DNA of 64,000 bases from Amoebophrya sp. A120. Lineage: Eukaryota > Protista > Dinoflagellata. The stretch covers positions 11,262,634 to 11,326,633 of the forward strand of contig CAJINV010000002.1 in NCBI GenBank assembly GCA_905178155.1, read 5' to 3'. Position numbers and translations under genes: made by a program. The stretch's first letter is position 1. Every line of letters starts with the position of its first letter. Below, in pieces: positions 11,044 to 64,000 of this stretch. The notes under the pieces were generated by a model. The model saw only the letters and a program-made list of their open reading frames with translations. It was not told the DNA's origin and made no database searches.

Positions 11044-11079
11044 AAAAAGTGCACCCGAACATGATAAAAAACAATACGC

Positions 11080-17141: not shown

Positions 17142-20015
17142 TTACGTCTCGCAGTCGACGGTAATCAATCCTGTGCAAAAAAATTGTATCGGAAACGTTC
17201 GTGGTGCGAACGAAATTCCATGAAAACAAATAGGTAGTGTAGTTGGGAAGCTACATGCACATGAATCAAGAATTCTGGTCTTCCTTGCTCTTCGCCTCTT
17301 TACAACTAACACTATCATGGGTACAAGCCTCTCGCTCTCGTATGATGATGATTCTTCTCGCTGAAGAAATAATAAAGGCTTCCTATAATAGATGAATACC
17401 ATCATGCTTGAGTATTCTAATGGAACTGCTGGCGTCATCAAAGGCCTAATTGAGGTAGTTCGGCACTCGTTCGCGATACTTCAACTTCTCTTGCAATGCA
17501 TATAATCACGGTCCGTTTCGTGTCATCCGGACAACTGGCCATAGCCTTTTGGCAAGCATTGCAGACGTGCCCCACAGTGCACGCCTGAATGGCCACGTCA
17601 AACTCCTTGCAGATGACAAATCGGTGCGTGACTATCCAAGAAAAAGGTCTGCGTACTGAATCTAAATCTATGCACTGTCAACACCCTTTAATTATTTTTG
17701 CGTGCCGTACAATTTTTTTCCACACATCTTCACATGTGCATTGGGCATGAACAGATCCATGTTAAGGAGGCGAATAACATAAAAATCGTAGCTCTGTGCC
17801 TGCGCAAATCATGGCGCATGATGAAGGTGCGCTATGTTGTATCCTTGGATTAGGGTTAGGATATAAATCCTTGGATGACAAGTGGTGATGAAGAACAGAG
17901 CGTCTTCTTGCTGATCAACAAACAAAGCGCCTACTTGCTGCTCCTCTTCATCAGAAGTGCACAGTTACATCACTCGAGCAGGACTTTTTCTCCCCGATAG
18001 TGACTGGCAGGTCCGCCTGGCTCGGGGGTACTCCCGGAAGTGCGGGCACCGGGCCATTCCGTTCGAAGTGCAAGAAGCCACGGAAGGGCTCCTCGTTCGC
18101 TCCGCTTCCGGTGGTCAGCTGTATGGATCAGACAAAAACAGTAGCATAGAAAATGTCAGCTTCGTTTCACTTTCGTATGTGACCGCTGGTTTGCGAAAAA
18201 TCTTTATGATCTTCTAAGCAAGAATCCCAGCGGCCTCGTCGTAGCTACACCGTGCGAGCAGTACAAGCGGGATCGTGTTGCGCGTAGGCACACGCTTCTC
18301 TGTCTCGCGGCTAGAACCTATTTTTATACGAAGAAGAACATCCCCTCACGCAGGAAGTCATACAATGTGCAGAAACCTCCTTCTCGTTACGTAAAGAAGA
18401 CTTCTTCAGCAAGACCAGCACGACCACATGCACAATCGGTTCTCGCGTGACAACGAAAGGAGCAATTCTATGCTGCAGAAAAGGGGCTATGTGTGATACT
18501 CTGGTCGCAGATCCAGCGCACGTCTGCCGTCATGTCGAAAGTGATCGCTTGATCAAGTGCAAATGTGTCTGGGTCGAGAAAATGAGTGAGGCGCATTTCC
18601 GTCAGATGCTGCGCAGCCAGGGAACCGCCAGACAAAGCAAAAGAACTGTTCTAATTGAATGCGCTCGGTGAAAAATCCACATGTGTGTTCAAGATGCATG
18701 TAAGTAGCCGACGATCCCGGCGATCATATCAGTTTCAGTGTGGGTATGCTTATGCGGCGCGCAATAAATAAGTACTCGACTTTCTCCTGCTGCGCGCGTC
18801 GCGAAATCAGGACTTTACTACGCGCGACGTCTTTTCGGTCACCACTGAGGCTGTCCCAGGCAACACATTTGCGTTCGTTACTTGTCCTCTGGCGCCGTCG
18901 AGCCACACTTTGAGTCAGCTTTAAACACCTGCGCATTGTTCCTACTAAACGCGTATTGCCTGCAAAAGATCTTTCGCGTGCGTACGTATTTTCGGGCACA
19001 AACTCAGTTTGCTTCTAATGAGCACGAGTACATGACTCGCTTCGGTATCATGGACAATTCAGAATGGCCCTGTGAAAGTGAGCGAACGCACTATCACTTT
19101 TGCGAAGCGTAACGCAAGCTGCTCCTCGGAAAACGCATTGAGTTGCTCGGCGGAAAGCTGTATGGATTGCAAAAGCGCGAGTGCCGCACTCGCCGTGCAG
19201 CTACAAATTGCAATCAAACTTTTGCGCGAGACCGACAGATCGTCAACATCCCGTCTCACTGTCAACATGTACTTACATTATTTCGTGCTTTTATAGAAAG
19301 AGTAAGAGACAGCATCCGAGTGAGAATGGGTTATGCAAATTTTACTGATGCGTCGAATGCGAAACTCCGTTTTTCTTTTTCGGTGGATATGCTGGGCCCG
19401 AGCCGTTCGCGCTTTTTTGGAAACACTCGCCGACACTGTGCTCATCTCGTTCAGCTTCGTGTGATGCTTCGCTATACCGTTGCTGGCAGTCACCTTGTTG
19501 TCGGTTTTTGTTCCTGCAACAGACTTTCCAGATGAGTCAGCGGCTTCTTTTCCGCGCCCCGCAGACGTGGAGGTGGATGCTCTAGTGGCCTTATTCAGCA
19601 AGAGCGACTTGAACAGCGGGGCGGTCGCTAGGGGGTTCAGCGTCAGCTCTCGTTTGACAGAAGTACGACCAGCGGGTGACAACGTGCGCCAATTCGGACT
19701 CTTTGCTTTCCGTAGATCTCCGCCGAAGTTCCTGCTGCGTGTGCCGTGTTCCGTGTCGTGCTCGCCCTCGTGCGGAGGAATTTCGTCCATCCGCCGAACG
19801 TGCGCTATCGCTGAGGCGGTACTGCTCCTCGAGGGCCTGTTGTGTCTTCGCGCAGAACCGGGACCCATTGCCTTTCCTGTCACCGGCCCCGCGGTTGCAT
19901 CTTCTTCCGCACCAGTCGCAACGGAATTATGAACTGCGGATGACACCAGTAGATTGCAAGTAGCTATAATCTGTACCCACAGGCACAACCAGGCGCGGCT
20001 TCCCGATGGACTCAT
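17142..20015 (-). CDS. Secreted protein with C-terminal unrecognised Cys-rich domain (paralog 2 of 4), at least 7 exons
   Basis: Signal-like MSPSGSRAWLCLWVQIIATCNLLVSSA. Reconstructed exons: TADVRWICDQ-MTTGSGANEEPFRGFLHF...PVT-HRFVICKEFDVAIQACTVGHVCNACQKAMASCPDDTKRTVI-TVDCET*. Mostly missing from the ORF track because the exons are short. Confidence 0.85.
17167..17502. mobile_element. Introner, family A-like (336 bp), TSD TAATC
   Basis: AATCCTGTGCAAAA...TTGCAATGCATA; TAATC at 17162-17166 and 17503-17507; join gives TVITVDCET*. Confidence 0.85.
17633..17999. mobile_element. Introner, family B-like (367 bp), TSD GTGAC
   Basis: TATCCAAGAAAAAGGTCTGC vs opposite end (revcomp) TATCGGGGAGAAAAAGTCCTGC; join PVT-HRFVICKE matches paralog PVVNYRFVECKE. 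Confidence 0.85.
18122..18498. mobile_element. Old introner (377 bp), decayed TSD
   Basis: TAT...ATA termini; sense flanks CAGAG / CAGCT; element+5 removal joins WICDQ to xTTGSG. Confidence 0.8.
18954..19111. mobile_element. Diverged family A introner (158 bp), TSD ACGCG/ACGCA
   Basis: TATTGCCTGCAAAAG...CTTTTGCGAAGCGTA; in-frame join EQLA-FSRNNAQVFK. Confidence 0.75.
19161..19389. mobile_element. Diverged family A introner (229 bp), TSD AGCTG/TGCTG
   Basis: TATGGATTGCAAAAG...CTTTTTCGGTGGATA; in-frame join ARAQ-LSAEQLN. Confidence 0.7.
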
Positions 20016-43754: not shown

Positions 43755-45004
43755 TAATACTACGTAGGCTCAGCATGCAAGAAACGGAAACCGTCTCACT
43801 CTTTTTTTCATGAGTTCCGTCATGATGCTGATGCAGCAGTGAGTAGATGAGCATGAACCGCAATACTTGTTTTGCGGATAGACCTGCTATACAGACTACG
43901 CCTAGGATCGTGTCTTGATGAAATAACAACAAAACTGCACGAACAACTGCTTGCGATAGCCCTTGTCATTTCCATACCTCCCGGCATGATTTGATGAAGT
44001 AGATATCTCTTTGATGTTTCCCGACGGCAGATTGCATACGAATTTGACCGGATGGCAAATCAATGGGCATTCAACTCAGATTCAATCAAGGTCAAAGTCT
44101 TTTTAGCAAAAAAAGTGGTCTGTACACCACAGCATTTGTACCTGCAGTGCAAAGTAGCAGGAAGCTAAAATATATGACCTCTCCTAGTAGTTTCAAAAGC
44201 TGCTCGCTGTCCAGCCTTGTGCTTGAGATGCTTTGTTATACGCTGGACCGCTTCCAGCAAGATGAGTTGGCACCATGTCCAGAATTCTAACTAATACGCT
44301 AGGCAAATGCATAACTTCCAACAAGTCAGCGATGGCAATATCTTCCTCTGTGCTCGTCACAGTGCGAGGGCTCCTTTACAGGATAGAGACAAGTGGTTGC
44401 GCATTTTTCCTGCTCTGCTGGTACCGCGAGCACAACTCAATATGCATCGCGGAGGTGGTACGCAACCGCGACTAGCTGGACACAAATCAAGAGATTTCTT
44501 CGAAGCGCCATTTAATGTTCAGACATTTGCCGTCATTAGCGGCAGCGAAAGATTATCATACATTTGTTTGGTACGATTTACGCTCTGTATCTTTCACCGT
44601 CTGCGCGTGCGCCTGCGCGTCGTTTGTAGACATTATTTCTTTGTGTCGAGGAGTAAAAAGAAAAAGTCACGCGTTCCTCTTCCTCCTCCTGGTTGCTGTA
44701 GTTACAGCTGCAAACGGCACAAAAAGACACAGCAGCGCAACTGGGTCCGCTTTGCCTTTGCAAGAGTAAAAAATGCCTCGTCACCTTTGCTTCATTTTCA
44801 GTTGTTCTGCTTCATTGGAAAAAAATACATTCGTACAGATTATCAAGTCGACAACGGAGTCCATTTTGAGCTGTTGGCGAACCGACTACATGAAAAATGA
44901 CTCTGACGCGATGCGTTCTTCAAGTGTTGTAGTTTGAATTTCATTGTACTCGTTCTGCTCTTGATACATTCCCGATTTGAAGATGTCGCTCCCGCCGGGC
45001 TCGG

Positions 45005-48000
45005 CTACATGCCATACACGACGTCCCGAGCGTATACCTCTTCGTGGTCGGCGCTTCTGCGACTCTTCATCGGTTGCAGAATCTTTTCCGGCTGCTCTTG
45101 CAACAGGCTGGACTGCAGGTCTTCGAACGGGGAGTGTGTGCCCAGGACTGGGTGCGCCGCAAGGCTCGAGCATTGCCCCACGCAGAACCGACAAGCTTCG
45201 GAGCTGCTGTCGACCTCACACTTGCTTTTGCACGGCTCAAAGCAGGTACTGGGAATGCTACAATCGTTTCCGAGGTACTCGGCCCAGCAGGTGCATCGGC
45301 CGTTCATGCAGGCCCCGTTACCGGAGCAGTCGCTGGGGCACCTCGGTAGGTCGCAGTTGGGACCCATCATCTTCGCATCCTGGCACTCCTGGACCTCGCA
45401 GATGCTACCCGTGAATCCGGGCTGGCAGCTGCACTGACCCATCAGGCAAAGCCCGTTGCCACTGCACCCGCTCGGGCACTGGGCCAGTGTGGTCTCGAAG
45501 CTTTTCGTCGAGCAATCGTCTCCAGCAAACCCCGCTTTGCAGCGGCACTCGCCGGGTGAGTCTTGCATCGCAAACACGCACTCGCCATTGCTGCTGCAGT
45601 CGTTCTTGCACTTTATGAACTGCAAAAGTATCGTATTCGTACTCGTATAAATGCATTACAAATTTCCTCAGCAAGAGAAATGGAATTTGTCATGCGGATT
45701 TACCTTCGTAACAAGATTTGTAATGTTGCAAGACTTGCATTTATACGAATACGATACTTTTGCACAGGATACACTTCGGGTCCCGGCAATTGGCTCCAGC
45801 CCAACCGGGATCGCACAGGCACGTAGCGTCACTTCCACAGACACCGTGACTACCGCAGTCGTAGGGGCATTGGTGGGTAGAGCAGTCGTCCCCCCCGAAG
45901 CCCGCCGCGCATGTACAGGTTCCTTCTTCACTGCACACGCCCTGGCCGTGGCAAGCGTTCCACTTCCGCAGCGTTTCGTCGTATCTTCCGGGGCACTGCG
46001 GGGCCTGGCAAAATTCCCCCGTCCAATACTATGGCCCACTCAAGTGTTCAGAATTTCATCTGCCCCAACCATGATTCATGTACGTGTAGTCGTTGTCGTG
46101 CCGCGTAGAATAAAGAATTGCCTGACATCGAATTGTCCAGGCTCTTTGCAATACACATTATAATTTCATGTTCATCGTAACAGACACTAAAACCAACATG
46201 CTGCGCTAGCAGTACCCTACGAAATGTCTCTTGAGGAAGTTGCAGTCTGACGCCTGAGCTTGCAACATCTGAGTGGGGCATAGCTTCATTTCGCAAACGC
46301 ACATACCACGACTCGAATCGCATCGCCCATGCCCGCTGCAACCGCCGTCAGGTCCGCAGACCTGGTCTGAGACCTCCGCCAGCGGTCCCCCGAGCCCGGT
46401 GATCGCCGCCGGCCCCGCCTCCGAGGTTCCACCTCCCGCACCTCCCCCCGCTCCCGGACCGGCCGCATCTGCGGCCGGCGCGCCCGCCGCCAGAAACTGC
46501 AATTCGCATTTTTCGCCTTGCCACCCCTGATTGCAGCTGCATTTGCCGTTAAGGCAGAGACCCCGACCGTTGCAGTTGTCTGGGCATGAGGATGCGACGG
46601 GCGTGCTGCAGCTAGCCCCAATCCATCCGGTTTTACAGACACAGTTCCCATTCGAGCACACACCGTTCACACCGCAGCCGGGGTCGCAAGTAGCCACGTC
46701 GAGCACGGGAGCGGGCGGTGCTAGCGCCCTGTTCTCGCAGTTTTCCCCGGAGTAGCCGGCTTCGCAAACGCAGAGCCCAGGCTGGTCGCAGGTCCCGTGC
46801 CCGTTGCAACAGCTGCGTGCGGCGCAGTCCACGCCCTTGAAGCCCTCGAAACACATGCACTGCCCGTTCATGCAGTGCCCGTTGTGTGAGCACTCGTTCA
46901 AATATGGTGTTGCACAACCCGCCCTCACGATCCTCCTTCTCATCTAGGATTCATAGTGCTGAGTCATTGTCATGTCCTACTAGCCCGTTAGTTCGGCGTG
47001 ACCCTGTACGAAAATCTTCGAAGGGGGCAAATGCCACAATACAGTCGGGGGATGTATTTTCGCACAAGTAGAGAACCAGTCTAGGCGTTACTTCGTTCTG
47101 TTGGGGGCGTGTCTGTGCCCCGGCTCTCACTCGTCCACTAAATGAAGGGGTGGGGAACAAGCGGTGCGCTCTCATAGCGGACACGCGTGCTGGCACGACA
47201 AGCCCGAGTATCCGGGGTAACACTCGCAGGTCCCGACATTGCACACGCCACGGTGACTGCAGGCGTCGGGGCAAGGCTTGGACTTGAGCTTGCGGAGCGT
47301 AGATATCAGACTTAGTGGTGTTGGACTCGGACGTGGCCGCGCTTTTTGTAAATTCAGAGTCACGACAAGGCCCTGCTGCGACAGAGTACTGCAATCTGGT
47401 CCAGTGTAGCCCGGGTTGCACTCGCACTTTCCCTCGGTGTTGCAGTATCCGAACCCGTTGCAGTCCCGCGGACACCGCTGAAAATCACACGCTCGCCCGA
47501 ACGTGTCCGGGCCGCAAATGCACATGCCTCCGACGCACAACCCCTTCAGGTTGCAGTCCTTCTCGCAACGCGGCGTGTCGCAGGCTTTGCCCGTGTATTT
47601 CGCATCGCAGGTGCACACTTCGGTCGACGCCCCATCGGGCCCAGTGACTGTTGTCAGCTTGCCGTTGCCGCTGCAAGGAACTAAGGCCGCGCCGGCTGTT
47701 GTAGAGGACGACCCCTTCTGCCCCCTGGCATTTAGGCTGGCGAAAGTGTTCGCTTCTTCGTTCTGCAAAAGCGACATCGAATTCTTCATCAGCCATGACT
47801 GTTCAGGAACGGCCTCAAAAGCATCATCGAGACCGCCGCGGCCGTGTCGCGCGGACCGTACCGAAATCATCGCCGCATTGTTAGTCGCTGGCGCGAGCGC
47901 AGGACCGCTAGACGAGGACACCTGCGTCAATGCAACCGACTGGGAGCGATGTTGCGACGATGTTTCAGCTCCATTCGACTGTTTCTCAGAATCAGCTTGA

Positions 48001-48732
48001 GTTTGCTCATGCTGCGAAGTGAGCAACCCCAAAAGCTGCTCTTGTTGCGCTAGCATGAAACGTAAAAGCATCATCGTCCTCATCAACTCCTACAACCAAC
48101 ATCAACAACTTCCTTGATGCATGCAAGACAGGATTACACATGAGTATCAGTTAAAGTTATGCATTATTTCCAGAATACTTTGGGAAGAAGATGAGGGCAA
48201 CCACAATTTCACGAATGATATGTGCCAGCGCCACTCCAAAAACAGGCCAGGCAGCGGACATCGGTTCTTCTTGCTTTGTCTTTGACCCAATATGCTTCTT
48301 ACCAGCCTCCGTTTGGACTTGAACAAAAGACAGCTTCTTCGCTTTCTTTTTGTGCGGATTAGGTCTGTTAAGAACTTGTCTTGGCAGCTTCTCTATTTTG
48401 AGATCAAGTGTCGTCACCTGAGGTGAAGCCGCTGCCCCGCCAGCCGATGCAGTACTTGTTCCACTACGCTCAGCCCGGCCGGAGGTAGACTTGGTACCGT
48501 TCTTGCTTTTGGTTGACGCGTACCCATCACGTTTTGCGACGCGACCACCTGCCTGTGCAGGATTATACTTCTGCCGCTTGGTGTCGCTGATTAGTAATTC
48601 CGCCTCTGCTACTGAAGTTCTTGCAGCGCTCTCGAGACCAGCTTTCAGTGACGAGCGAGCAACGTCTTTCATCTGCGCCGCATCTGATTTCGCGAAAAGA
48701 GCGTCGATGCGGGCCTTTGCCGAAGATGGCAA
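45005..48732 (-). CDS. Tenascin/teneurin-type EGF-repeat extracellular protein (over a dozen EGF repeats)
   Basis: Repeated CPxxCSGxGxCxxGxCxCxxGxxGxxC across ORFs 47172-48086, 46206-46943, 45741-45938 and 45005-45625, joined by removing three introners. Confidence 0.9.
45614..45771. mobile_element. Introner, family A (158 bp), reverse orientation, TSD CACTT
   Basis: TATGAACTGCAAAAGTATCGTA...TACGATACTTTTGCACAGGATA; join CRDPK-CKNDC restores EGF spacing. Confidence 0.95.
46030..46282. mobile_element. Introner, further TIR family (253 bp), TSD lost
   Basis: TATGGCCCACTCAAGTGTT vs revcomp end TATGCCCCACTCAGATGTT; join CVCEMx-WTGEFC. Confidence 0.85.
46903..47176. mobile_element. Old introner (274 bp), decayed TSD
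   Basis: TATG...CATA termini; join HACP-NECSHNG. Confidence 0.75.
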
Positions 48733-49535
48733 GTGTTCGTGAAGGTCACCCTTTTGCGCAGTAGCAGCACCTCCGGGGGTCCGCCCAGACGTGCTTGCTT
48801 TCGTCCGCCGTTTATTGTCAGCGGACGCTTTGTATGAGATTCTTCAGAGTGCACAACTACGCCCCCTTCGCAGTAAGTACTTGATTCAAAGGCATGATCT
48901 ACGGCGACATCACTGTCATTTCTTCTTGGATTTCCTCCCACAGCAGGGGATCCGCACTTCTGAGGGGCTCGTTGGCAGCGGTGCTGTTAATATAATATGG
49001 AGGAGCTGTCCAGACCCACGACCAGTCGCCAGAGCGATAAGCGAAGCTTAATACAGAATTCATTGTCCGGAACGATGCAACGGCTAATGAATGCGAAAAA
49101 AAAGCCTCAGCTGCATCATTCATGCATCTCTATGAAAATTCGACAAGCTCGTGGTACTGCTGCTCAAGTTTCCGGAAGTAGTTGTGACGCTCATCTAGAG
49201 TGCCGCGACAAGACAAAGAACGAGTGGAGAGGTAGACTTTAGTGTCGTGCATATGACAAATCAGCTCGGGGAGCATCAGTTGTATTCGTGCACTCTCATA
49301 TCTGTTTTGCTACAGACGTAGCGATTCCGAGTTCGTGCTTGTGTGGATGAATTGCGGTCACGAGATCGAGCTCCAGCTTTTTTGTGGGAATCGTGCTGCC
49401 TACATAAATGTGCAATGCAAAAGTGCTGTCTCAGCCCCTCCTGGGAAAAATGCAAAAGAAGAACTTGCGATCGTTGGAATGTCGGAGCAGGACACATCTC
49501 AGGAACAAGTTGCTCCATTGTCATTTTTGTGGTTT

Positions 49536-50700
49536 TATCCTGTGCAAAAGTATCGTACTCGTATAAATACGCTACTGGCATGCAAATAACTTCTCACCAA
49601 CTTCTCACCAACTTGTGATCAACTTCTGACCAACCTTTTCACCAACTTCCCAGCTGTTGAGAAGTTGGCGTAGACCGCTTGCCGCGGTTGTTCGGAAGCT
49701 TGATGCGGAGCTGAAATCCACTCGAAACTCCCCACAAGCTTCTAGCTAGGACAACTCAAAAGGAAAATCCCGGGCCTCGATTCGTGGCCGCGTGCCTGCG
49801 CAGTCACGATTCGGCTCCCGTGATCTTCGGTTGCTAAAGGTTGTGAAGGATGGCTTGAAAATATCTTTTTCACGTGCAGCTGGATCCTTGCGGGATCCTC
49901 CACATAAAAGGATTGCTTTGGGCTTTTGGAGGCGTCATGAAAATTCTTGCATGATGCCTCCAAAAGCTCGAAGCTTGTCGCGAAAATCGTCAGGATGTTC
50001 GTCGAGAAGCTGGTGGGAAGTGCATCGGGAAGTTGTTGAGAGGTTGTTGAGAAGTGGAGCACTGATTTGCGCATTAATTGATGCAGGACGCACGCAAAGT
50101 CGCTTTTTCTTGTGCAAAAAAATAAAAGGCAGCTTCTCAATTAATTAACTTCGTGAATTATACGCAGTTAATCAATTAGCTAATCAATTGACGCCGAGGG
50201 AGAATTGCACATGTCCAAAGCTTGTCCGCCCAAGCCGCGCGCAGCTCTCCATCGTCGAGGGAAGCCGTCCTTCGCTTCCGTCTTTGATGGCTTCACGCAG
50301 GACAGGTGCGTGCGCGCAGACATCACGGCCGGCCGCGCTGTCTGCCGCCTCTTGTATATTACGGCTTTGCGCGTGATGCCGTCGTGCTAACTGATGAAAC
50401 TGCACTGCAGATAAACGGGCAGAACGAGAGCGCGATCCTCGTTCCATTTATCTACAGCGCTGTTCCTTCTAGCTCTTGCAGCTGCAGTGGCAACTGCAAG
50501 CAGCGAGCACGAGATAAACCGCAGCGACGGAGTGGCGCGACGTCGAGGCGAGAACTACGCCAGCACGTCGCGCAACTTCTCACCGACTTCCGCACCAACT
50601 TCGCGACCGACTTCCCAACGACTTCCCAACGACTTCTCCGGCAATTTATGCACAGAAACGCTAGCGGATTTATACGAGTACGATACTTTTGCACAGGATA
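49536..50700. mobile_element. 1165-bp non-autonomous TIR DNA transposon sharing family A termini, TSD GGTTT
   Basis: Perfect 33-bp TIR TATCCTGTGCAAAAGTATCGTACTCGTATAAAT; GGTTT at 49531-49535 and 50701-50705; subterminal ~11-bp CCAACTTCTC-like arrays; no transposase ORF. Confidence 0.95.
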
Positions 50701-51051
50701 GGTTTAATACGGTTTACGCATTTACAAATGGCAAGTCTTCCAGCAGTCTTCATCTTCTTCTGTTCTCTTCCATATCCATCCCACTCTCCATGATGAAAAA
50801 TACAGAAGAAGTAGAACGGAAAACAACTACTACCCATTTCTGGAAACAATGTTCATCGGCATGTAAAGCCTGCTCCGAAAATCAATGTGGTTGTAACAAG
50901 TGACATGCATAGCGAAATTTCAGGTTCTGGCTCTGACTCTGTGGACCACGGACTGTTGCCAACTGTGGGTCGTCGAGGACCATGACAACATCGCTAGGAC
51001 GAGAATGGAGTCGAGCGACTGATGAACATCCTCTTCTTCTAGCTTGCATCT

Positions 51052-52738
51052 TTATTCTTCGAGACGGAGACACTCCTCTTGCACATAGCGAAACGGGGAA
51101 AAGGTGCCAGTTGCGGTTCCTGCAATTGCAACACTATGACTACCCCGTGTCGAGTCGCGGTTGCTGGATATTGCTGGCCCTCGTGCCACAGCCCCAATCT
51201 CCTTGCTTACGAAGCCGGCGTCCGCGTCATGAGTATCCACTGCAGACTTTGTAGCAGCGCCTTCAGAGGAACTCGCTGCAAAGAGGTGTGTAAGCGACGA
51301 CTGCAATTCCGCAGCGCGGTTCAAAACTGACCAGGGTTTGGGCACGTCGTCCACTTTCTGCTGAACAGCCGCACTGCTTCCCGATTTCGTAGCTTCGTCG
51401 AGCTGAGCGCGTTGCCCGAACGCAGTGTCCGAGACCGCTCCCTTCGAGTTAGCGCGGTCACCCTCGGTAATGTGCCTGCATAATCAGTGAGTGTCACTTA
51501 TTACGACCTACTGTGCCAGTGCCACTGACATTTGCCAGATGTAGAATAAAACTGAGCCGCTGCCGTAGCATCATCTCCATCAACTTGCTAAAGCTTCTCT
51601 TCTTCAACAGCTACTATACGATCTTTTTTGCCACCATTTGGGGTTGAGCACGTAGTGTCGTCCGATCTACACCGAGTCACAAATGACTCGGAGGGACACG
51701 ACGATGATCGCGTCGGTTTGTGCTATTGCTATTGCTTGTGATTGGATTTCGAACAAAGACAAAGACAAACACTACAGCAATTATATACACTTGATCCGAT
51801 TCCGATGCAGCAGGAGGCACGACGGTGGTACCTGCGATTTCCTGACGCACCCCTTGCTTCTCACTGATCATCAGCAAGTCCGCGGAGGGTGGCGCAGCAC
51901 TTACTCCGCTGGTTTGGTAGTTTCCCGTAGTCATATTGAACTTGGCCGTACCCTCTGTTTTCGTAAGCGTGGAAGGACTTGGGGCATCTGCGTCAGCGTC
52001 TCCTCCCACGGCTCCTCCAGGAAACTGCTGTGGCGCACCAGCGCTCTGGGAGTCACTGGTGACATAGTGAGGCAGCTCTGTCAATCCTGTCGAAAAAAGC
52101 CAGCACAAGCTTTATTTCATTCGCATGTTTTTCGCACGTCTTTACTTTTCGTAAAAGTTGTCATATGCTTATGGACAAGCATGGGCTGCATGAAAAAAGT
52201 TTAGTGCCAGGCACAACGAAACTCTTTTGACACGTCGTACTAGTATGACCAATCGTCATAGACATTTACTTGGCGGCCTCCGGAGTGGTGCCCGGCAATA
52301 GCGATTTTTTATAGATTTCTTCTATATTTGCGCTTGCCTTGTACTTGGTTCATTTCCCTTTCGTGGTTTACACCAAGTGGCAGAAGTTCAAGGATGTAGC
52401 TTTTTGCTAGTAATTTTCTGCTCTGGTAGCGTCATTCCGTTGCCCTGATAGCCATGCGGCGTCTCCGTGTCCTCGTTGCCGAGCAATACACTGCACCGTT
52501 TTCCTCCAAAATTTGCATGGCAGACGCACACTCCCCTCCGCTGGTTGCACCATCCGTGCACGCACTTGCTCGCAGCCTCTTGCCCGCGGCAGTCATCCAC
52601 ATCTTCTCCGGAGCTCTGTGGTCCCGGCGGCAGTTGTCGTACCGACACTGCAGCAGTACTCTGGCCGCCACGCGCCAACGGGAAGGCGAAGACGTGGCAG
52701 ACAAGCAAGAGGAGAAGCATGCGGCTGCGGACCGACAT
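51052..52738 (-). CDS. Signal peptide + EGF domain + low-complexity exons; probably the N-terminus of the EGF-repeat gene
   Basis: MSVRSRMLLLLLVCHVFAFPLARG; CVHGWCNQRRGVCVCHANFGGKRC; ORFs 51677-52108 and 51052-51354. Confidence 0.65.
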
Positions 52739-53736
52739 ACTGATAAGGTGCAGGGCTACAGCAAGGGGCCGCCCGATTCTGCCAACCCGGGCACACAGGG
52801 CGGCGCCCACGATCGACGCAACATCGATCTTGAGAGTTGTAGCTCTGCTCACGCGACGCACATTTTAGCACAAGAGCACTATAGGTATTCCTTGTATGAT
52901 GTGCTGCAACTCCAACTGTTGAAAAGGAACGCGTCGCGTTGGCGATGGCGGTGATGAGTGTCCAGTAAAAAATCTTGAGGAGTTTATATTTAGTGAGTAT
53001 CACGCCGTCGAGTAGCAGCACAAATCCTTGGACTATTTCGGGCTCGGCCTCGCCTTCGGCTAACATCCAAATCAATGCAAATGAGTTTGTCGGTGACAAA
53101 TAGAGCACATTGTCGTTGCTGTCTGGTGTTCCCCTCGAGGACACCTACTGAACGTACTAGTCAAAATCGCTTCCTTGTTCCCGAGAAAGCCAAAAGCGAA
53201 AGGGGAAGTTTTATCTGGCCTCGGTTTCGCTACAAATCAATAACTTTCAGCACTATGGATGCATATGCTCGTTGCACCTGTTCTCCTGGTTTTGTAAAGA
53301 AGCTCAAAACAACTCTCGGTCGTCCCCTTTTTTTTCCGTTACGCTAAACAGGCTACGGCTAGCAATTTAGCAGCCAGCGCGATAGTTTTTTCAGGCAGTA
53401 TCTACGTCTACGTCGTAACACTGACCGAATTGGGTTGAAAACACAAATAGTCTGTACCTACTGAATATTGATATTGTGCTGTCCCTCCTAGCACTTCTTC
53501 GTATCGTTGTAGTCGTCGTTTTCAAACTCAATCTCATGAAAGAGGTATGTTATTTGTTCTATTCGATTTGTTTTGTGGAAAAGACGGATGGAGAAACGAC
53601 GAAACATCTGAAACCTTAAACGCTGGCAACCAATGCAAGCGGGGCGGCCTTCTCCAGTCGATGTGGGCGAAGGAATGGGCATGGAGGTCGTAGGCGAAGG
53701 TGAGAAAAAAAAGTAGATACGAAAGGATACTTGTAG

Positions 53737-55160
53737 TCACCGGCCCAAACAACAACCGGCAAGGGCGAGGGCAGTCAGGACGCTACCGGTCGTCCAAGGT
53801 TTCTCCGTCGCCGTGTCCGCAACGCCCCTCGCCGTGGTATATATGTATCCTCTGCAAAATTATCGCACTCGTATAAAGATATTAAACAGCAACCTTGCAA
53901 CATGAAAGGAGATTTGCTTTCCTATTCACCTATTCCCGAATCTGCATCATAAATTTTCCACTTCCAGTTCCACCTAAAGATATTATTCATTTTATACGAT
54001 ACCTGTACGATACTTCTGCAATGCATATCACTGTTGTAGCAACTGGGTCGGCTGCGCTACGGAGTGTATTACACAAGTTGCATTGACGGTGGCCTCTCCG
54101 GACGAGCTCCGACTGATTGCTTCCAGCTTGCATGAATGCGCTTCCAGAAGTAGCCGCAGGACTTCCAGAAGACGTGGAAGCGGAGGCCGCAGCGCACATT
54201 GCACAGTTCCACTGCTGCGGATTCAAGCGCGCACCAGTGTCAGCGACCTGAGCGGCGCATTGTGGCGGCAATTCGTCGCTGCTGTCAATGTATCCATCTC
54301 CATTCGTGTCCAGCCTGACAAACGCGATCGCCGCTAGGATGCCGATTGTGGGGTCACTGTCCATCAATGCCTTTGTCCTTGTCCACGTATTCCCCTCGGT
54401 CGCCTTCCACAAACGCCGCAGCGATTTTCTTGTCCAGGTCTTTTTGCTTCTTGGCACGATCCTCGCTTGCTGCAGTCGGACCCCCCTCGTCCGATTCGGA
54501 CTTTACCACCAGGTCCTCGTAAGCGTACAAATCCTCGACGCTCCCGGTGTAAATCTTGCGCAGGTCGAGTGCCGGAGCAGCGGATGCAGTGCTTATTTCC
54601 GACGCGGCAACGTCCGCGGTGAAGGAGGGCCCGCTTTGCTGCAACGCATCTCCAGAGGTCGTAGTAGGTCCGGATGGAGGAGCTGGAGCTGCTCCCGATG
54701 AATCCACAGGCGCGATTTCCAGCGCAGACAGCTTGGCAGCCAGAACCGCACCAGCGGAGGTTGCTCCTGCTTCCTCCGCACCTGCAGCGGTTGCCCCACT
54801 GTATTCAGACACATCAAGACCCTGCTGACCACCGTCCTGCGTCACTGCGATGGCATTCGTTATCCCTGCTGGAACGACACCAGCTTGGTCTACGTAAAGA
54901 GAACCTCGCAGATGGGGGAGCGTGACGTCCGTGCCCGCGTTCCCGGTCTCCACGGCCCCGGCGGTCCCACCGGAGCTAGCCGGTTGCCCCTCCTCCGTGG
55001 TGGGGTCATCAATGCGGTTGCGCTGGAACTGCTTGTTGGCCGAAATAAGATAGCTCAAATGATGGAACGCAAAAAGATAGGCGTGCATTGCAAAGCTCAG
55101 AGTGTTGCTACAGCTGGCTTTCGCCAGTGCCTTCCGCTGTTGTCGCGCCGTCATCATCAA
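53737..55160 (-). CDS. EF-hand-containing Ala/Gly-rich protein with hydrophobic C-terminus
   Basis: Canonical loop AFVRLDTNGDGYIDSSDEL; inferred C-terminus TGSVLTALALAGCCLGR*. Confidence 0.7.
53846..54027. mobile_element. Diverged family A introner (182 bp), TSD lost
   Basis: TATCCTCTGCAAAATTATCGCACTCG...CGATACTTCTGCAATGCATA; join ATTV-YTTARG. Confidence 0.8.
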
Positions 55161-56033
55161 TTTAAGGGGTGCGTAATCCGCGGCGTGCTGCTCTCAATCG
55201 TCCTTCATCTGCTTGACACCAAAGCGGACGTGGGTCTTCGCCGACGACGCGCGAGACGTCCCCGCCTACCCTGGTCGTCCTCGACGTAGTAGCTCGCTTC
55301 GCACTTTTTCTAGACGACGGAAACTGCGGTATTATCGCAGCAAGATTGAATCAGATAGCCCCAACGTCCCCGGGAACGAGGGCTCTCTTGAGATACCTTG
55401 CAGAGCGCGCGCCTTTGCGGCCCTATCCACTGCGCTGCAGAAACTCTCAGCACCGGCAGTCGGCCAACCGCGGCCTCCCGGTTCACATATAATAAATGTA
55501 GCACAAGGACTATTACTTGCTCCTGACAGTGTGAGAAGAGAGAGAGCACAATTAATTGACACGAAGCGGTGGACTCGCAACGCACCTCCAAGGAAGTGGC
55601 CGGGCACAAACAACGCACCAATGAACTCGCAAAAATCTTAGTCTTATGTGTATCAAATAATGCAAACCCAAACACCCATGGCAGGAGTTCCTGATCCGAT
55701 TGCAGCTACTACATCTTGTTCAATTAAATGAAAATGAATCACATTACCTCTCACTTCGTCGCTCGTCTCATTGGAATCTCTAGAACATGATGTGCATTGA
55801 TATTGTTGAGGAGCGTAGCGCTCCGTGCGTGGCGCGCAGTGCATCAAGATCAAACCATACCACTCCTACTTGTTTTTTGCTGCAGCAGATAACGGTAGCT
55901 TGATGCAGCACGATTGCACTGTGCCTAGGCTTGCAATTCAGGTGGAGGTAGCCTCAGGATACCATCAAATGCAGCGTTAGAAGCGATTCCGATTTTTTAC
56001 ATATTGAATCTTAATAAGTTAAAAAAGTTTGTC

Positions 56034-59000
56034 TTATCTACTCGGTGCACTTACTCCTAAAGACTGCTCGTCAAGAGCATCAGCATGGGCTGACGGAGTG
56101 GTACTAGAGGTCGCGGTCGAGGTCGGCGAGATCATGATCTCTGGCCCTGTGCCTGATCCGGGAGGTGCGGACTTGGGGTTGCGCACAAAATCGACTACCC
56201 CTTCGTACCAGAAATGCGTTCCCACCTCCATCAGACTGTGCCCATCAGGTCCAATGATCGCAGTGCGGTCCCCGAAGTGCACCGTCCCCAGGTTGCTCCG
56301 CTCGTAGAAAACTCTCTTCGGGGACCGCACAGTCTGGTTGGACCCATTCGTGCCCTCGCTGTGCGCCCCGGTCGAGGCCCGACGCGAGTTTTTCTTGTTG
56401 CCACGGGTACTCGAACTCATGCCTCCGATCCGCCCTCCAGGAAGCAGTGCGGTCTTGTTCACCGCGTCCCCGTCTGGGAGGTGCTGCATCTCCAAGTCTC
56501 CAAAAAGGTTCGTATCAGGGTTCACGTTTATCCTGCGCAAAAGCAAAAGCATCAACGTACGCACATTGCTTCTATCTTGCTCTGTTGCTGTTCGCAATCA
56601 TTTCATTGCATGACAAGCATGCTTTCGCTTCCCCTTCGCTTCCACATCCTTTCATCATCTACTAGCATCACAAGAGCATCAACATTCTACTGCCAAATAC
56701 AGTTGAGGATGCAAAGACAAAGATCATACAGTTGCGTCTCCGTTACTTTTGCAGCGCATACCGTCATCACTTGAACCGAGCCCAAAATGCTCCAGGTTGT
56801 CCCGCGGAAAAGCCGCAGACATTGCCAAGGGAGACTCGCCGTACATCTGCTCATCCTCGCCGTCCTCGTCTACGCCATCTGCATCCAGATATGAGAGTGT
56901 CACGCCTGGGAGACTGTCGTCCTCCTCTGGAACGGTATACAAACACTAAAGACTTTGACTGTGCCGCACATGGGAGTGTAAGAGCAAGAGCTTCTTTCTT
57001 GCATCACAAAGAAACATCAGGTTCAGGGGAGCGATCATAGGAACGAACTATTACAAACAAAAAGAGAGCCGATGAAATCAATCGGTGAAGTTCCTCTACT
57101 GTTGGAATGCTGGGAGTAAATCCACCAAAAATAGATACCTCACAGCCTGTCCCCGACGACCAGGATGCAGCAAAATCTGTCTGTCATGCTCATGCATCGG
57201 CATTGCTGCCGCTTTCCGCAACAGGAATCGAGGACGCCATCATGACAAGAGTATTCGTCAATGAAGCAAGACAAATAGAAATAGGTTCCAGTTCGACTTT
57301 CGCAGAATCCAGCTATGATTGCTTTTCTTTCGTATCACATTGCGCAGTGTCAGCATTGAACACGGGCTCAACGTCTTCACAGCGGCACACCCAGAAAGCA
57401 GAGAGATAAACTGTTGTAAAAAGTTTCATACCTCCCTATCGATATCTTCTGTCAAAATGCTGAGTATACGCATCTTGATATCTATCATATTGCATCAACA
57501 TCACCAGCGTCATCAAATACTGGTGATTTCGTGGTCTTCCTATCTCGAACCATCGAAAAACAGGTACAAAGGTACGTTCCCAGATGAAATCTAGCCGCGC
57601 ATCGCTGGATCATTTCTAAACAAATGTAAAAAAGTAAATCTCCGTACCCCATAAAGCGGCGAAGGAGCTGATTGCTCGGTCATTTCTTCCAGCTGTCGTG
57701 CGTGATCATTGCCAGTACGGTTGCCGAGGTCATCTCGATCTCCTTCATCTCTGACCTCCGGCTTGGTGATTGTGATACTCTCTGCAGAATTGTCTTTGTC
57801 CACCTTCATGTCACACGTATCAACACGGAGAAGACCGCTGCTTCACCTGTTACTTTTGCCTCACTAGTACAAGGATCAACTTTGGAGCACCGTCTCCTCA
57901 TACAGACTTGTATTCGCTTTTTCGTTCAAGTAGGGAACCAGGCACTGCAACTCGTTTTTATTTTTCTCGTGCGCCTCCGCTTGGCCTTCGTCGCGCTGTA
58001 TGAATGTGTACAACAAGCCATGCGTTTTATATTATCCTAGCACTAGAACTAGCGTAAGGGTAAGCGTCAGGAACAGGATTGTACGGAGCATAATTTTCCT
58101 GCAGGACCCACCAACGTACGACTGCGCCATTGAGCAGGAGAAGTATTTCGTCGGCACAGCGGTTCTGCGTAGTTCCTCTCTTGGCACCTCGCGTCGTGGC
58201 ATCAGGAGAACCAGGACCCGAAACCGTGTCTGAGTTATTTACTTTCATCGTCGAATGTACACTCGGAAGATCTTGCTCGACCCACAGTGGACAGCCGTGC
58301 AGCAGCATCACTACGTCTCCTTTTCGCAAGGGCCGCAGCTCCGCCTCGATGCTGCTTTCCTTCTCCTTGGAATGCGCAATGACCTTCGTGGTGGTCCCCG
58401 GCGACGAGGTATTTCTCTCTGATCCCGATACTACGGCTTGCACGTTATAATTCGCAGGTGACACAACATCCGAATTCAGCGCCGCTTCTTCCCTTTCGCT
58501 CGTGGGGTCGCTGGACGAGCTGCTTGCTGTCCTGTCAGAGGATCCCCCCACGAGAGCCGATGTGCACAAAGTCCACGACTCTGTGTCCACTCCGAAGAGC
58601 ATCACGCAGAAAACATGACTCCGTGGAATCTAGCTTGTTTCATCTGTTTCTCCATTTCATGATAATTTATCACTGTCCCGAAGACAAGATGCAAGTCCTA
58701 GTCCACAGCGAGAAGTACCAAAACACGTGGCCTGTGCGCAAATCACTGAGCCTCAACGACATTCCATACTTGTCAGGTCCGATTTCGGGAATTTCTATTT
58801 GCGATTGGGCTTGCCATTTTCGCGTGCAGACAAAGTAAATGTATGGTCCTCGTATTTTCTGCAGGATAAAATCCACCTGCTCGCGCTTGTTTTTTCCGAA
58901 TCCGAATCTTAGACCCATCATGCTTCCGCTTTTGTTTGATGGTGACGCTACGACCTCGAACTGAATCTGGCGAAATACCCACTTCTCCTCGTCGTAATCA

Positions 59001-59050
59001 TGCAGCTTGTCGCACAGTTCAGGACCGCTAAAATAGTCCAGGCTGTCCAC
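56034..59050 (-). CDS. Multi-exon protein of unknown function; possible divergent SH3-like segment
   Basis: ORFs 58670-59050, 58027-58605 (ELRPLRKGDVVMLL...WWVLQENY), 57591-57809, 56724-56942 and 56034-56597. Confidence 0.55.
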
Positions 59051-60252
59051 CGATCCTCTGGAAAAGATCTTGCACCGTCTTTGCGATCACCTAAACTACC
59101 TACAATAGCTGTAAGTAATATGTCAGAATGTGAATGATACTAGGAAGGTCTCGAGCGTATTTCTATTTTGGGGTCGAGCGTACTTCTAATGCAACATCTG
59201 CATGATCTGCCCGCTCTATTATACTACACCAGTTTACACCAGCAAGAAACTATGGGGTCGTCAACGTTGTATTTGCCTCAGACCGTAAAAAAAATTCTTC
59301 GCGCATTTTTTCGCGGCGCAAAGCTAGTAAACCTGTGCACGCTAGTGAGGGGCTGACTTGAACGCGGTTTGTTTTACCTAGCTTGTCAGCAACACTGCTC
59401 CAGTAGGTAAGTGAGTATTGACGCGAAGGGGGGCGGGGCGCTGGGGGTTCTTCTGTGGCTGATGTTTCCACCTAGAAAACGCCGGGCGCGCGCAATATTT
59501 TTCTCATTTTTCCGGATTGCTCTCTCCGTGCAGCTATTTGCCGCTATGGCCTGGGTCAGCGTGTGAGGCTGGAAACGCCCCGCGAGATGTCTACACAGGC
59601 CCTGGCCTCGTCGTCTCTAGCAGGCACCACGCACACATGTTGGCCGCGAAGGCCTTTCCGGAGCCCTTCCAAAAAGGGGGAGCCGGAGGGGTGCCCGGAA
59701 CCCTAAAAAAAAGCCTATTGCTTTTTCTTCGAATCACGATGGTGCTACCCCTCCCCAAAAGGGGTCCCGGAACCCCTCTGGGAACCCTTCCCGAAAGGCT
59801 CTCGGGCTTTTCGCATTTTGCCGAAAAAGCCGCAAAGGCAAAATGCGCGCGCGCCTGCCGGTACACGCGTGCACAGCTGCGCGACATTAGAAACAAGGGG
59901 AGGCGCAGCCGCGGCCGATTCCGTTTGCGCCCTCGACTCCGACCGACTTGCACAGATTGAGGCCCATTGTCTAGCGGCTGGACTGCAAGAGGACCTGCTG
60001 CAGCACCTCCTGGCTGCAGGGGCGCTCCGAGGCAAGTCCGTGGAGCAGCAGCGCCGGATAGCTCCGTCTTTAGCCACTGAGAAGCGCTGCGAATAGGCTA
60101 GCGATTTCATTAGGTGTGCAACATAGTGGGGGGCTATACGTGTGCAACATGATGGATATCAAATACAAAAAAAGGCGCGCGGAAAATTTTTTACAGCTTG
60201 AGGCAAATACAAGTTTGACGACGCCATAGAAACCTCGCGTCCAGCAACAGCA

Positions 60253-63200
60253 TCAGCAGACAAAATTTCCTCTTTGAAAAACACAGCAAAGCGCCCGATG
60301 ATTCAAATTCTTTCGTACACAAGCAATGCATTTTGTGTGTGCGTGAGCGATGCTTTTCACTTTTGCAGTGCGTACCACCGTGAAAATGGAAAACGCGCTG
60401 CCATCCAGGCCTCCGCCGCTTGGACTTTGTGTACTCCCTGCGCCGGACGGTGAGGCAACTGATTTTTTTTCGTTGCTCGAATGCCTTTCGCTGCTTCCTG
60501 CGCTCGTCACATGGTCCGCTACCTCTGTTTCTGGCCCACTGGTGGTCGCGGTAGATCTGGTGGCTCCCGTTCCAGCAGTAGAGGCAGCTTCTACGTCTTG
60601 TTGCGCGGTGAATTTCTGTATTGACGCCGTTTGCAGCGGTGTCACCACTTCGGTGGTTTTCTTCGCAGCGATGCTTCCGTCCTGATCTACCGATTCCTGC
60701 TTTACTGCAAGGGGTGACGCGGAAGAGCTTTTTTGCTCGCCCTCGCCCGCAGCTTGGCTTGCATTGGGGCTCGCAGGGGATCTACTTCCCGAAGGACTCG
60801 TCGTCTGGTGAACAAACGAGAAAGGGGTATCCTGTGCAAAAGTATCGCACTCGTAGTAATCGCAATCATGCATTACAAATCTCCATCCCAAGGCAAAACA
60901 GCATGACAAATTCCATTTGTCGTGCTGAGCTAATTTGTATTGCAATTACTACTAGTACGATAGTTTTGCAGTTCATAAGGGGTTACCTCCAACAAGTCGT
61001 GGCCCTCCTCGACTGGAATCTCGGATGATATTACGCTTTTGGTTTTTTCGTCAACTGCATCGAATGCAAAAAACGTTATGTTCTGAACAAGAGTCAGCAA
61101 GTTCCACACACCGCTTTTTGAATGCCTGGTTGCTGTGAAGTGTGTGCCTGAGCTTGAGCGTCGTGAATCATGATCATGGAGCATGCATCTTTACGGGTTT
61201 CGCGAGCGCACCTCACTCCGTCGGAATCATGCCCCTCTGGCACGAGAAGCTCGGCGTTTGAACAAATTAAACCATGGCACGACTCCTGCTGCGATTCATG
61301 CGTGAATACAATAGAAAGAAGATGAGCAGCTTCTTAATGTCCCTTTGTCTTGTATAAATAAACAGACGTTGACGTTCTACTTTTTAGCTGCGACTTCAAT
61401 GGTTCACCTGTTATCAGTGAAAGCACTGCCACACTACCCAGACACGTTTTGCAAATTCGGCGTGGATAACCCGGGTCGTTGATGGCCGGCCCCTGCTCGG
61501 TCGTGGGCGTATTCGATTTCGAGCCGGACGTCTCGAAGGACAGGGTTACGGAATCCGAAATGATGTCAACGTCAAACAGGTCGGCATCGAGGGAGGACTC
61601 AAACTTCAGCTCGTGCTGCTGTTTGCAACTCCTCCCTTGCATAGAGGTCGACGACGAGGGGGAAGAGCTTGTGGGTGCGGTCGGGTCGAAACTAGGATGG
61701 TGGTCCCCAGCGGACTGCCCGGCGGACTGGAGCAGCTTTCGCGAAAAGGTGTTTCTGTCGTTGCTCTGTTGCAGGTAGGCCCGGCTCGCCTCCGAGGGCG
61801 CGAAGCCCCCGAAGTATTCTTGCATACTGCCATTCTGCTGCTGGCGCTGAAGCATACCCCCTCGTTCGGACGTTGCGACTCCGCCGCCGACTCCCCCCGT
61901 ATGCATTGCAAAAGTATCGTACTAGTACAAATTGCATTACAAATTCTTTCAGAAAGAAAAATGAAATTTGTATTGCTAATTCAGGTAAAAAGGTAGGTTT
62001 GTCATGCAAGATTACAATTAGTACGAGTACGATACTTTTGCACAGGATACCCCGACGGAGACTTCGATGTCCGCAACCCGGGAAATCGGATCTCGTCCTC
62101 CAGGTCAAAGCGAAACAAGTCGGCGGTCCCTGGCATATGGAACGTTAATACTCAGGCGGAATTTTCTGTATCCTGATGAACAGTCTTTCGACGATGCGTT
62201 CTTTTCGCTTCAATTTGTATGTATCAAAATCGTATTTCTACTTCCGACCCTTTGAGCCTCTTGAAGATGAGAAGCTGCGTCGTTGCGCCACGAACAAACC
62301 TGTTCCGCCGATAAGTACAGCGAAAAGCACCAGCTGGCGCTTTTGTTTCTCCTCGCATGATCTGCAAAAAAACTGCTCGAGCAAGTTAATAATTTGCTTC
62401 GAATCGAACGGCAAAGATCGCCATTTGCTGCTCAAATAAACATATATCCGATTTGACAAGGGTAGGGCGAAAAGAGGTACGTCCAACCAGGGTCGTGTGT
62501 AAGTGTGATCGTTACCGATCGGTGAAGAGAGCCTGCATGCCAGATTTTTACTAGGAACATCTCTTTCGTTCACATCAAAATGAAATTCCCACCACCTGAA
62601 GATGTTTTGATACGGTGCGAAAAAATCATCCTGGTCGTGTTCATCCATTCCGTCAAGGCACGCAAAAGGGTCCTGGTCCAGCACTTTTGGGAAAAAAGAG
62701 GAATCATCTTCCTGCAAAGTCCCCGCCTCCCTGGAGGACGAGGCGGTACCAATACCACCGTGACCGAATCTGCCAGGTGGAGGTGGTGCGTCGGTCTTGA
62801 ATCCAAAATCGAAGTTCGGCTCTGCATCAAAAGGGTCGCTGCCAGGAGCCGCTCCCGCGACGTCCAAGGTGGGAAACAAAGCGTCCTCCTCCTGCGCGTC
62901 AAAAGTGGCGAAGTCCTCGACTTGTTCTGCCGTGGGAAAGGCTGCAAAGTCAATGCTATCTCCCGTCTCATCCTCGACACTAAAATTCATAGCGCCATCT
63001 AATGCAGCATCACTGCCCACAACTACGCCAAGGCCAGAGGGAGGATTTTTGCCCTCGTTCTGCTGGTGTTCGTCGGCTGTTGCAGTTTCCGAAGGCATGG
63101 CGGGAGCGGCAGGAATATTGAACGTGGCGGAAAATAAATCATCAGCATTGTTCGTATCGGACTGGCAAGTGGATGAGGTGAATGTATCCTCGTCCGATTT

Positions 63201-63272
63201 TTCATCTGCAAGCGCACCAGACGGCCAAGATCCGGCGCCGTGGCCGCCCTGAGGAGCTCCTTGTCCACTCAT
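60253..63272 (-). CDS. Acidic, Asp-Phe/DPF-rich N-terminus plus Ser-rich exons; may continue into the 56-59 kb gene
   Basis: ORFs 62238-63272, 61334-61906, 60930-61184 and 60253-60945; two junctions restored by introner removal. Confidence 0.65.
60828..60977. mobile_element. Introner, family A (150 bp), TSD AGGGG
   Basis: TATCCTGTGCAAAAGTATCG...CGATAGTTTTGCAGTTCATA; join EVTP-FSFVHQ. Confidence 0.93.
61900..62049. mobile_element. Introner, family A (150 bp), reverse orientation, TSD CCCCG
   Basis: TATGCATTGCAAAAGTATCGTACT...AGTACGATACTTTTGCACAGGATA; join SPSG-GVGGG. Confidence 0.93.
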
Positions 63273-64000
63273 CGAAGGACTTCCGAGGAAGCAGTGGAAA
63301 GTGTTGCTTTTCTCAGTTATTTGCTTTCGTATGTGATGAGGATTTCAGACATAGAAGATCTTGTCCAGGTGAAAATAATTTATACCGAATTTTTAATTTA
63401 TTAAACTTCAGAAGAAAGCGTGGTGCGCCTCGCTTGAAAGATGATAAAAGAGACTTCTAAGTATGCGTACAATGAAGGAAAGCTCCAGTGGCCCTGGCAC
63501 TGGTGTCCGTGCAGCACAGCCTACCTGATAAGCATAGAAGGCGTGGCCGCGGAAGCAGGCCGCAATACAACTATGCCGCCTGACCAAGAGGTGATGCTTC
63601 CGTTGTGCCCAAGAGCAAGACTGAGTCTGAGCCTGACCATGATCTCGATCAAATGAAAAAAGGTATATCTGACTACAAGAGCCTAGAAATCTACGAGGGG
63701 CCCCTTCCATCATATATTGAGCGATACCGCGAACATCAAAGCTTCTATTTTATGTGTAGTCGTCATTGCACTGCGTACACACAAACAAAGAAGCTGCTGG
63801 GAATAAAGATGAACATAAAGAGAACGACAATAAATATAACGAAGAAGCATCTTCATCAGTTCGAGCGGCCGCGTAATCTTGTTGGGTCTAAACCTTGTCA
63901 TTTGCTTTTGGGACCTATTGCATTTGGAGCTCCCACCCAGCACTTGCCTTATTTTTCGAACTAGCTAGACCGCGAGGGAGAAAAAGGGTTTTTTTTACTG

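Follow-up and report, generated by a model that had tools for sequence, protein, structure and literature searches.

We analysed a 64,000-nt window of the genome of Amoebophrya sp. A120 (contig CAJINV010000002.1, positions 11,262,634 to 11,326,633 of the forward strand), in which genes are interrupted by copies of a short repeated element, here called family A. It is an introner of about 150 nt resembling a MITE (a miniature transposable element with inverted repeats), with TAT..ATA ends and a 5-bp target duplication. All window genes tested lie on the minus strand. Among the core copies (named by their first position in the window, Table 1), 60828 and 61900 share one gene, 45614 interrupts a gene for a protein with EGF repeats, 53846 lies in a 192-amino acid (aa) frame overlapping an earlier open reading frame (ORF), and 4325 is found at the gene model P0001 (Amoebophrya sp. 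A120), which came up in a protein search made with one window exon and whose exons are identical to those of the window. With its terminal inverted repeat, fixed-length duplication, short length and lack of coding capacity, family A has the traits of a MITE, and it belongs to the published A120 introner class, whose repeats start with TAT followed by seven looser bases and AAA, a pattern repeated in family A, and whose direct repeats measure 3-5 nt (Farhat et al., 2021, PMC7789003; the papers cited here were available in part, and statements on them refer to those parts). About two-thirds of Amoebophrya introns lack GT-AG (65% are non-canonical in A120, with borders called variable relative to the hairpin; PMC7789003).

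Family A copies of either orientation are removed from RNA

The two ends of the element hardly differ at positions 1-3 and from about 8 to 28 but are unlike at positions 4-7, the likeness at positions 1-20 being partly imposed by the end-motif search, and the inverted repeat puts about 28 nt on both strands. Read along the forward strand, the TATCC-type end comes first in 4325, 53846 and 60828, and a TATG end in 45614 and 61900; on the sense (minus) strand TATG comes first in 4325, 17167, 53846 and 60828, and TATCC in 45614 and 61900. These orientations, as assigned to six copies in an initial annotation, proved correct on the sense strand by the ends, and whole-element alignment agrees. For 60828 against 61900, whole elements scored 164 flipped and 84 unflipped, and after trimming of 45 nt from each end the scores were 28 and -24; because the trimmed interiors still favour the flipped alignment, the opposite orientation of these two copies involves more than the end motif. 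The placing of 17167 in family A stands for its end motifs but not for its interior: this element of 336 nt begins with AAT, shares only the end motifs, gives negative alignment scores against all family members, and the join left by its removal runs into a stop within a few codons. A perfect 5-bp repeat flanks four of the five core copies and has been lost from 53846 (1 of 5 matches). In young copies either strand can form a long stem, and the two strands are alike in folding energy (z from -5.1 to -7.4 in three young copies).

Removal was followed in assembled RNA contig sets (X1-X4, one sample of one study) and compared with DNA contigs of run X5; contig depth over the copies, inflated as it is by other copies, did not enter the comparison. 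All four RNA sets skip 155 nt (150 nt plus one 5-nt repeat) at copy 60828 and again at copy 61900, and a single 1964-nt contig (X3) lacks both. This contig can be read as a 587-aa frame only on the minus strand, against at most 306 aa on the plus strand, which bears out the earlier suggestion that the two copies face opposite ways within one gene; three exon frames of this gene gave no Pfam match. Contigs of X1 skip 45609-45771, 163 nt corresponding to element 45614 plus one repeat, and skip 53846 as 187 nt, here read from contig pieces without letters between them; seven further introns are skipped in X1 among the joints listed. Copy 4325 is absent from gene model P0001, and the sequence across the resulting join aligns with a repeat of that protein which has no interruption. 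Family A copies of either orientation are thus precisely removed from RNA (60828, 61900, 45614 and 53846), as had been proposed.

Orientation balance and register of the cut

The initial annotation had named an unspliced or strongly depleted orientation as the outcome that would speak against it. Orientations were counted in a related strain. A search with a 20-base end motif yielded 152 loci, spread over 25 of the 64 parts of one collection and all from one assembly, which derives from a different strain with 89% identity to an A120 ortholog. Of the 160 ends, a far end was located for 143 and the flanks were usable for 141; the 5-bp repeat is perfect in 101 of these 141 and carries one mismatch in 28. 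We examined 122 copies (125-200 nt, repeat matching in at least 4 of 5 positions, flanks of at least 60 nt), of which 114 have unlike ends. Host strand was predicted from sequence by a codon model for which the window served as training set (of 53 held-out trials, 43 passed the threshold and 42 of these were correct). The model called 44 of the 114 copies, 22 TATCC-first and 22 TATG-first (95% interval 0.35-0.65); base skew alone split the 114 copies 55:59. When calls were made per locus, which covered 45 of 81 loci and took in the window too, the 64 family-like elements divided 26:21, the remaining 17 having a symmetric or variant form; copies overlap between these counts. The counts support the view that neither orientation of family A is depleted.

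A retained element breaks the reading frame in 17 of 17 and 14 of 14 copies. Removing the element plus five bases leaves the frame open for at least 90 nt in 14 of 17 and 13 of 14 copies, compared with 10 and 7 copies for the element plus four and 6 and 3 for the element plus six, a test that is partly circular in that the strand calls themselves used the +5 length.

The cut fits a polar register on the transcript, falling one base before TAT and four bases after ATA (-1/+4), or, as a general motif, one base before TA[T/C/G] and four after an ATA-like triplet. Among 13 RNA joints one is GT-AG, and the other 12 all allow this cut; in P0001 it is allowed by 8 of 10 junctions (all eight resolved ones with inverted repeats), the other two being one plain GT-AG junction and one unresolved. 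The 5' offset of -1 is the only one common to all 20 junctions. All six RNA joints whose position cannot be slid lie at -1/+4, the 3' triplet carrying one change in three of them, and in 10 of 12 RNA joints, one of them a tie, ungapped pairing is best with four bases overhanging. Duplications decayed to 1-3 of 5 matches are still cut at -1/+4. An offset of -4 is excluded by TATC-first introns of other families (joints 48049, 61052, 62131 and 2503). For one TATCC-first copy of the related strain (L031), a residue of the A120 ortholog matches -1/+4 and not -4/+1, a single and indirect case; an ortholog search for a second such check (L013) found none, and the remaining mismatched copies examined for register were synonymous or of low complexity. 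L031 belongs with L032 to one related-strain gene with at least seven TAT-ended elements, six with intact repeats, whose junctions fit the A120 protein P0003 under -1/+4; this gene could be useful for dating insertions between strains.

Across the 20 junctions, T at +2 and A at +3 are invariant (20/20 each, with T at +2 in 6/6 of the unslidable ones), T stands at +4 in 18, C or G at +5 in 19 and A at -7 in all 20, while +1 and the last four bases are mixed; in the 44 strand-called copies, base +1 and the last two bases are likewise mixed. The invariant A at -7 was considered as a branch point. It is found in 20/20 and 123/123, but the mirror position has A in 18/20 and 121/123, which amounts to no real difference, and we keep the assignment only as a prediction.

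The proposal that the TAT/ATA ends and the stem are what is recognised is upheld in so far as the shared ends and the stem mark the cut. The cut itself is asymmetric, which, like the constant T and A at +2/+3, the initial annotation had not noted, so that the recognition of the symmetric ends has a direction. One rule for both orientations, N-TAT..ATA-N4 as read along the transcript, renders intron borders predictable and would permit the correction of slid annotations.

Conventional splice-site signals are largely missing. The 5-bp duplications are near-random: 100 of them comprise 92 different sequences. Of the 44 strand-called copies, 1 has an equivalent GT-AG register and 4 have a G[TCA]-AG register (13 of 100 on either strand), and none of the four family A RNA products is matched by a GT..AG pair. 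Copy 60828 even holds an in-frame GT..AG pair of equal length, whose product differs from the RNA contigs. At +1, G is found in 8 of the 20 junctions and in 10 of the 44 copies, and AG ends 2 of 20 and 5 of 44, although some register would end in AG in 19 of the 44. The branch motif, sought on both strands as had been suggested, was equally elusive: counted by orientation, YTRAY is present in the last arm of 2 and 3 copies out of 100, CTRAY in none of 100 in both orientations and TACTA in 32 and 30, so that no consensus seems to be needed. Measured against U2-type introns, family A thus has U at +2 and lacks G at +1, the 3' AG and the branch consensus. Both TATCC-first window copies begin with GT under -1, and a pyrimidine run with CAG lies close to the 3' end of several copies.

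Two further types of site were considered and rejected. U12 introns combine an RTATCC donor, a TCCTTAAC-type branch and an AC or AG end with the minor small nuclear RNAs (snRNAs). In family A the donor likeness is confined to the TATCC-first orientation, YNYTRAY is found in 2 and 0 of 100 copies and an AT-AC register in 2 of 44; minor snRNAs are reported absent in A120 (PMC7789003). A bulge-helix-bulge site, as used by the tRNA endonuclease, was discarded by reasoning only, the last four intron bases repeating, not complementing, the exon end.

Candidate routes of removal

We lean towards removal by a modified, U1-independent spliceosome that would use the end-to-end hairpin to place the 3' cut. 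Family A would insert by means of a transposase supplied in trans; a search for an autonomous transposase gave no Pfam match in the four ORFs of the 1165-nt copy or the 16 ORFs of the 7.9-kb intron described below. Since both ends read TAT, an inserted copy would present N-U-A-U at the 5' splice site in either orientation, and its stem would end four bases before the 3' cut in either orientation. Taking one and four flanking bases would remove exactly one copy of the duplication and so repair any insertion. The catalyst would be a U2/U5/U6 spliceosome that does without G+1, AG and a branch consensus and keeps U+2 and A+3. Orientation would be indifferent because the same start and the same stem end are offered either way, and removal by a single rule would explain how tens of thousands of insertions are tolerated. 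The initial annotation had taken two-way removal as an argument against the spliceosome, whose signals are directional. This argument is not supported: with ends near-identical at the positions given above, a directional signal in the arm would occur in both orientations, and two-way removal does not exclude a spliceosome.

This preference is based on the fixed TA at +2/+3, a nearly complete spliceosome, the existence of hybrids and the precedent of Fritillaria. The nine commonest non-canonical motifs of A120 are all NT-NN and the nine of A25 all TT-NN with a TTA repeat (PMC7789003), which would place TA at +2/+3 in both strains despite their different repeats. In A120, 83 of 89 spliceosomal proteins and U2, U4, U5 and U6 were found, while U1 was not, and 15% of canonical introns carry the same repeats as the introners (PMC7789003). 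In Fritillaria borealis, introns that, like family A, are derived from transposons and break GT-AG are handled by a changed U2 spliceosome; they differ in keeping preferred ends (AG-AC, AG-AT) and U1 (PMC13326754, PMC11282704), whereas in A120 the 3' dinucleotide and +1 look free.

Several points weigh against the register or the spliceosome. Joint 49404 prefers a stem offset of 7 and joint 52078 is ambiguous (2 of 12 joints); the former had been regarded as a +2 exception, which was dropped since it fits +4 given one change in the triplet. The register was picked by motif within the slide range at 14 of 20 junctions, which makes the position counts partly circular, and within family A only one TATG-first copy has an unslidable register. 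The RNA joints stem from one sample and from contigs only, and an enrichment of G at exon position -1 (9 of 14 against 13 of 50) was not replicated (5 of 16). Spliceosomes ordinarily require an AG and a YTRAY-type branch motif, both as scarce in family A as reported above, and TA at +2/+3 might have been retained only for the sake of transposition or pairing. Finally, seven large A120 families have an annotated 3' AG in 24-34% of introns (PMC12130899; among 20 of the 58 A120 rows of its table), an excess over our 5 of 44 that may be explained by slid annotation.

The same elements and the same polar register might also be served by a non-spliceosomal endonuclease and ligase reading the TAT/ATA-capped stem, as proposed for the nonconventional introns of euglenids, a close rival that we consider less probable than the spliceosome. 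It would account for the joint absence of G+1, AG and branch consensus, for the bypassing of nearby YAGs, including the in-frame GT..AG pair of 60828, for the strong stems in both orientations and for the undetected U1. The nonconventional introns of Euglena are like family A in being MITE-like with paired ends that bring the cuts together, in having slidable borders and in revealing their code only in unslidable introns; their signature, too, consists of a paired motif whose distances from the two cuts are fixed but unequal, and they leave as circles (PMC12501133, PMC11282704). The signature itself (N3CDG..CH'GN5-6|R) is not found in family A, which reads N1-TAT..ATA-N4 and has no purine rule after the 3' cut. 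Euglena and Amoebophrya belong to unrelated lineages, the register thus paralleling the Euglena code in a distant branch, and the likeness would be convergent; nonconventional introns of diplonemids offer a further comparison for a nuclease and ligase (PMC12621601). In its strongest form, which we entertain with the same reserve, Amoebophrya would possess a second mRNA splicing pathway, evolved independently of euglenids and in need of neither GT, AG nor branch site, that joins the exons after cutting at -1/+4 around any hairpin capped by TAT/ATA. Whatever its orientation and target sequence, an inserted TAT-ended transposon with a 5-bp duplication would then become an instant intron with perfect repair. 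Against this stand the TA at +2/+3 in both strains, which matches the retained core of a spliceosomal donor, the hybrids, namely the repeat-bearing canonical introns of A120 and an intron of P0001 (5804-13661) that is both GT-AG and -1/+4, and the fact that no candidate enzyme is known.

Excision at the DNA level, comparable to the internal eliminated sequences of ciliates, or an empty allele as the source of the RNA, is very unlikely. The ends do resemble transposon ends and one copy of the duplication is left behind, but X5 DNA contigs run into or across the copies 45614 and 53846, eight listed skips have depth 0 in X5 (contigs drop rare variants), an intron neighbouring 60828 and 61900 was also assembled in retained form from RNA, and TATC-first and TATG-first introns share one register. 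A hairpin between short direct repeats is the classic setting for template-switch artefacts of reverse transcriptase, and contigs derived from complementary DNA are the only source of joints here. Still, such switches have even less to commend them, as six joints offer no repeat to switch on and yet share one register, a retained element disrupts the frame in each of the 31 copies tested, as it does in the window genes, and removal restores the 587-aa and 1388-aa frames. Ordinary GT/GC/GA-AG splicing in either direction, with sites drawn from duplication or repeat, is the least credible route, for despite published two-way introners of this type, the GT starts under -1 and the CAGs noted above, it is contradicted by the RNA joints, by the scarcity of suitable registers and by the variety of duplications.

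Two-way introners were reportedly described in Aureococcus anophagefferens by Huff in 2016. Those of Polarella glacialis and A. anophagefferens resemble family A as introns made from DNA transposons inserted either way, with one copy of the duplication removed (bioRxiv 10.1101/2020.10.14.339549, PMC10228655, PMC9860276). They need GT/GC/GA and AG from repeat or duplication, which constrains the target, and their orientation is biased; family A, in contrast, has near-random duplications, no such sites and no detectable bias. The introners published for A120 share with family A the organism, RNA-supported non-canonical borders, many copies and the lack of an internal transposase (PMC7789003, PMC12130899), but are given borders that are variable or unknown relative to the hairpin and no orientation count, as opposed to a fixed polar register and an even split. 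In the table of Gozashti et al. (2025), A120 families are labelled inconsistently, as co-opting the 5' site, the 3' site or both. For seven large families it gives 26-30% GT and 7-13% GC plus GA (PMC12130899; again among 20 of the 58 A120 rows), which, like the NT-NN form of the commonest A120 motifs, accords with the register at the 5' end. The introner class and two-way canonical introners are thus known, while a fixed -1/+4 register and an even division between the two orientations in the absence of canonical sites appear to be new; neither the register nor an orientation count for Amoebophrya was found in the literature searched, where figures, supplements and subscription papers may bear on novelty.

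Other TAT-ended elements and neighbouring features

Table 1. Family A copies, other TAT-ended elements and host genes in the window (window positions; the entries at 17167 and 56529 were judged by their letters).
Feature	Position	Strand	Remarks
Family A copy	60828..60977	-	TATG end first; duplication 60823-60827 / 60978-60982; intron 60824-60978 under -1/+4
Family A copy	61900..62049	-	TATCC end first; duplication 61895-61899 / 62050-62054; intron 61896-62050
Family A copy	45614..45771	-	TATCC end first; duplication 45609-45613 / 45772-45776; intron 45610-45772
Older family A copy	53846..54027	-	TATG end first; duplication decayed; removed as 53842-54028, unslidable -1/+4 joint
Family A copy	4325..4502	-	TATG end first; duplication intact; removal from gene model P0001 only
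Family-A-like ends, unrelated interior	17167..17502	-	Duplication intact
Family-A-like ends, TATG first	56529..56760	-	-1/+4 removal gives open frame; no RNA joint among those listed
1165-nt element	49536..50700	.	Both ends of TATCC type; flanked by a 5-bp duplication; lies within intron 49405-51088
Other-family TAT intron	46026..46283	-	Unslidable -1/+4 joint
Other-family intron, TATC end first	48050..48221	-	Unslidable -1/+4 joint
Other-family TAT intron	48829..49301	-	Unslidable -1/+4 joint
1684-nt intron	49405..51088	-	Unslidable; 5' cut at -1; 3' family-A-type end with one triplet change; stem offset ambiguous
Other-family intron	52079..52429	-	Unslidable; one change in each terminal triplet
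Other-family TATC-first intron	61053..61468	-	In host gene of 60828 and 61900; slide range -1..0
Other-family TATC-first intron	62132..62613	-	In host gene of 60828 and 61900; slide range -3..-1
Host gene of 60828 and 61900	60375..63368	-	Part under one RNA contig; 587-aa open frame after four skips
EGF-repeat host gene of 45614	44616..53029	-	1388-aa frame spanning eight joints; end of the last exon deduced from the contig's length

The 1165-nt element has short internal tandem repeats near both ends and is possibly a deletion derivative of a parent element; its four ORFs gave no Pfam match. The P0001 intron at 5804-13661 (minus strand, 7858 nt by the gene model) contains 5-7 copies of a 29-60-nt repeat, several inverted repeats and 16 ORFs without Pfam match, and might be an introner swollen by nested insertions. 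For the intron at 61053-61468, the retained form is assembled beside the spliced form in 3 of 4 RNA runs listed.

Near copy 53846, at 54354-54502 on the minus strand, a 279-aa ORF stops and the 192-aa ORF, with a weak EF-hand match, continues in another frame while the RNA contig is gapless; a frameshift, two separate ORFs and a broken allele are alternatives. Another TAT-ended family is represented at 22516-22724, with end pairing of 20/20 and a perfect 5-bp repeat, and its removal opens the frame. At 59250-60140 lies a multi-copy repeat with raised DNA depth, many variant positions and three ORFs without Pfam match, and degenerate family-A-like ends are seen at 40991-41223 and 35474-35690.

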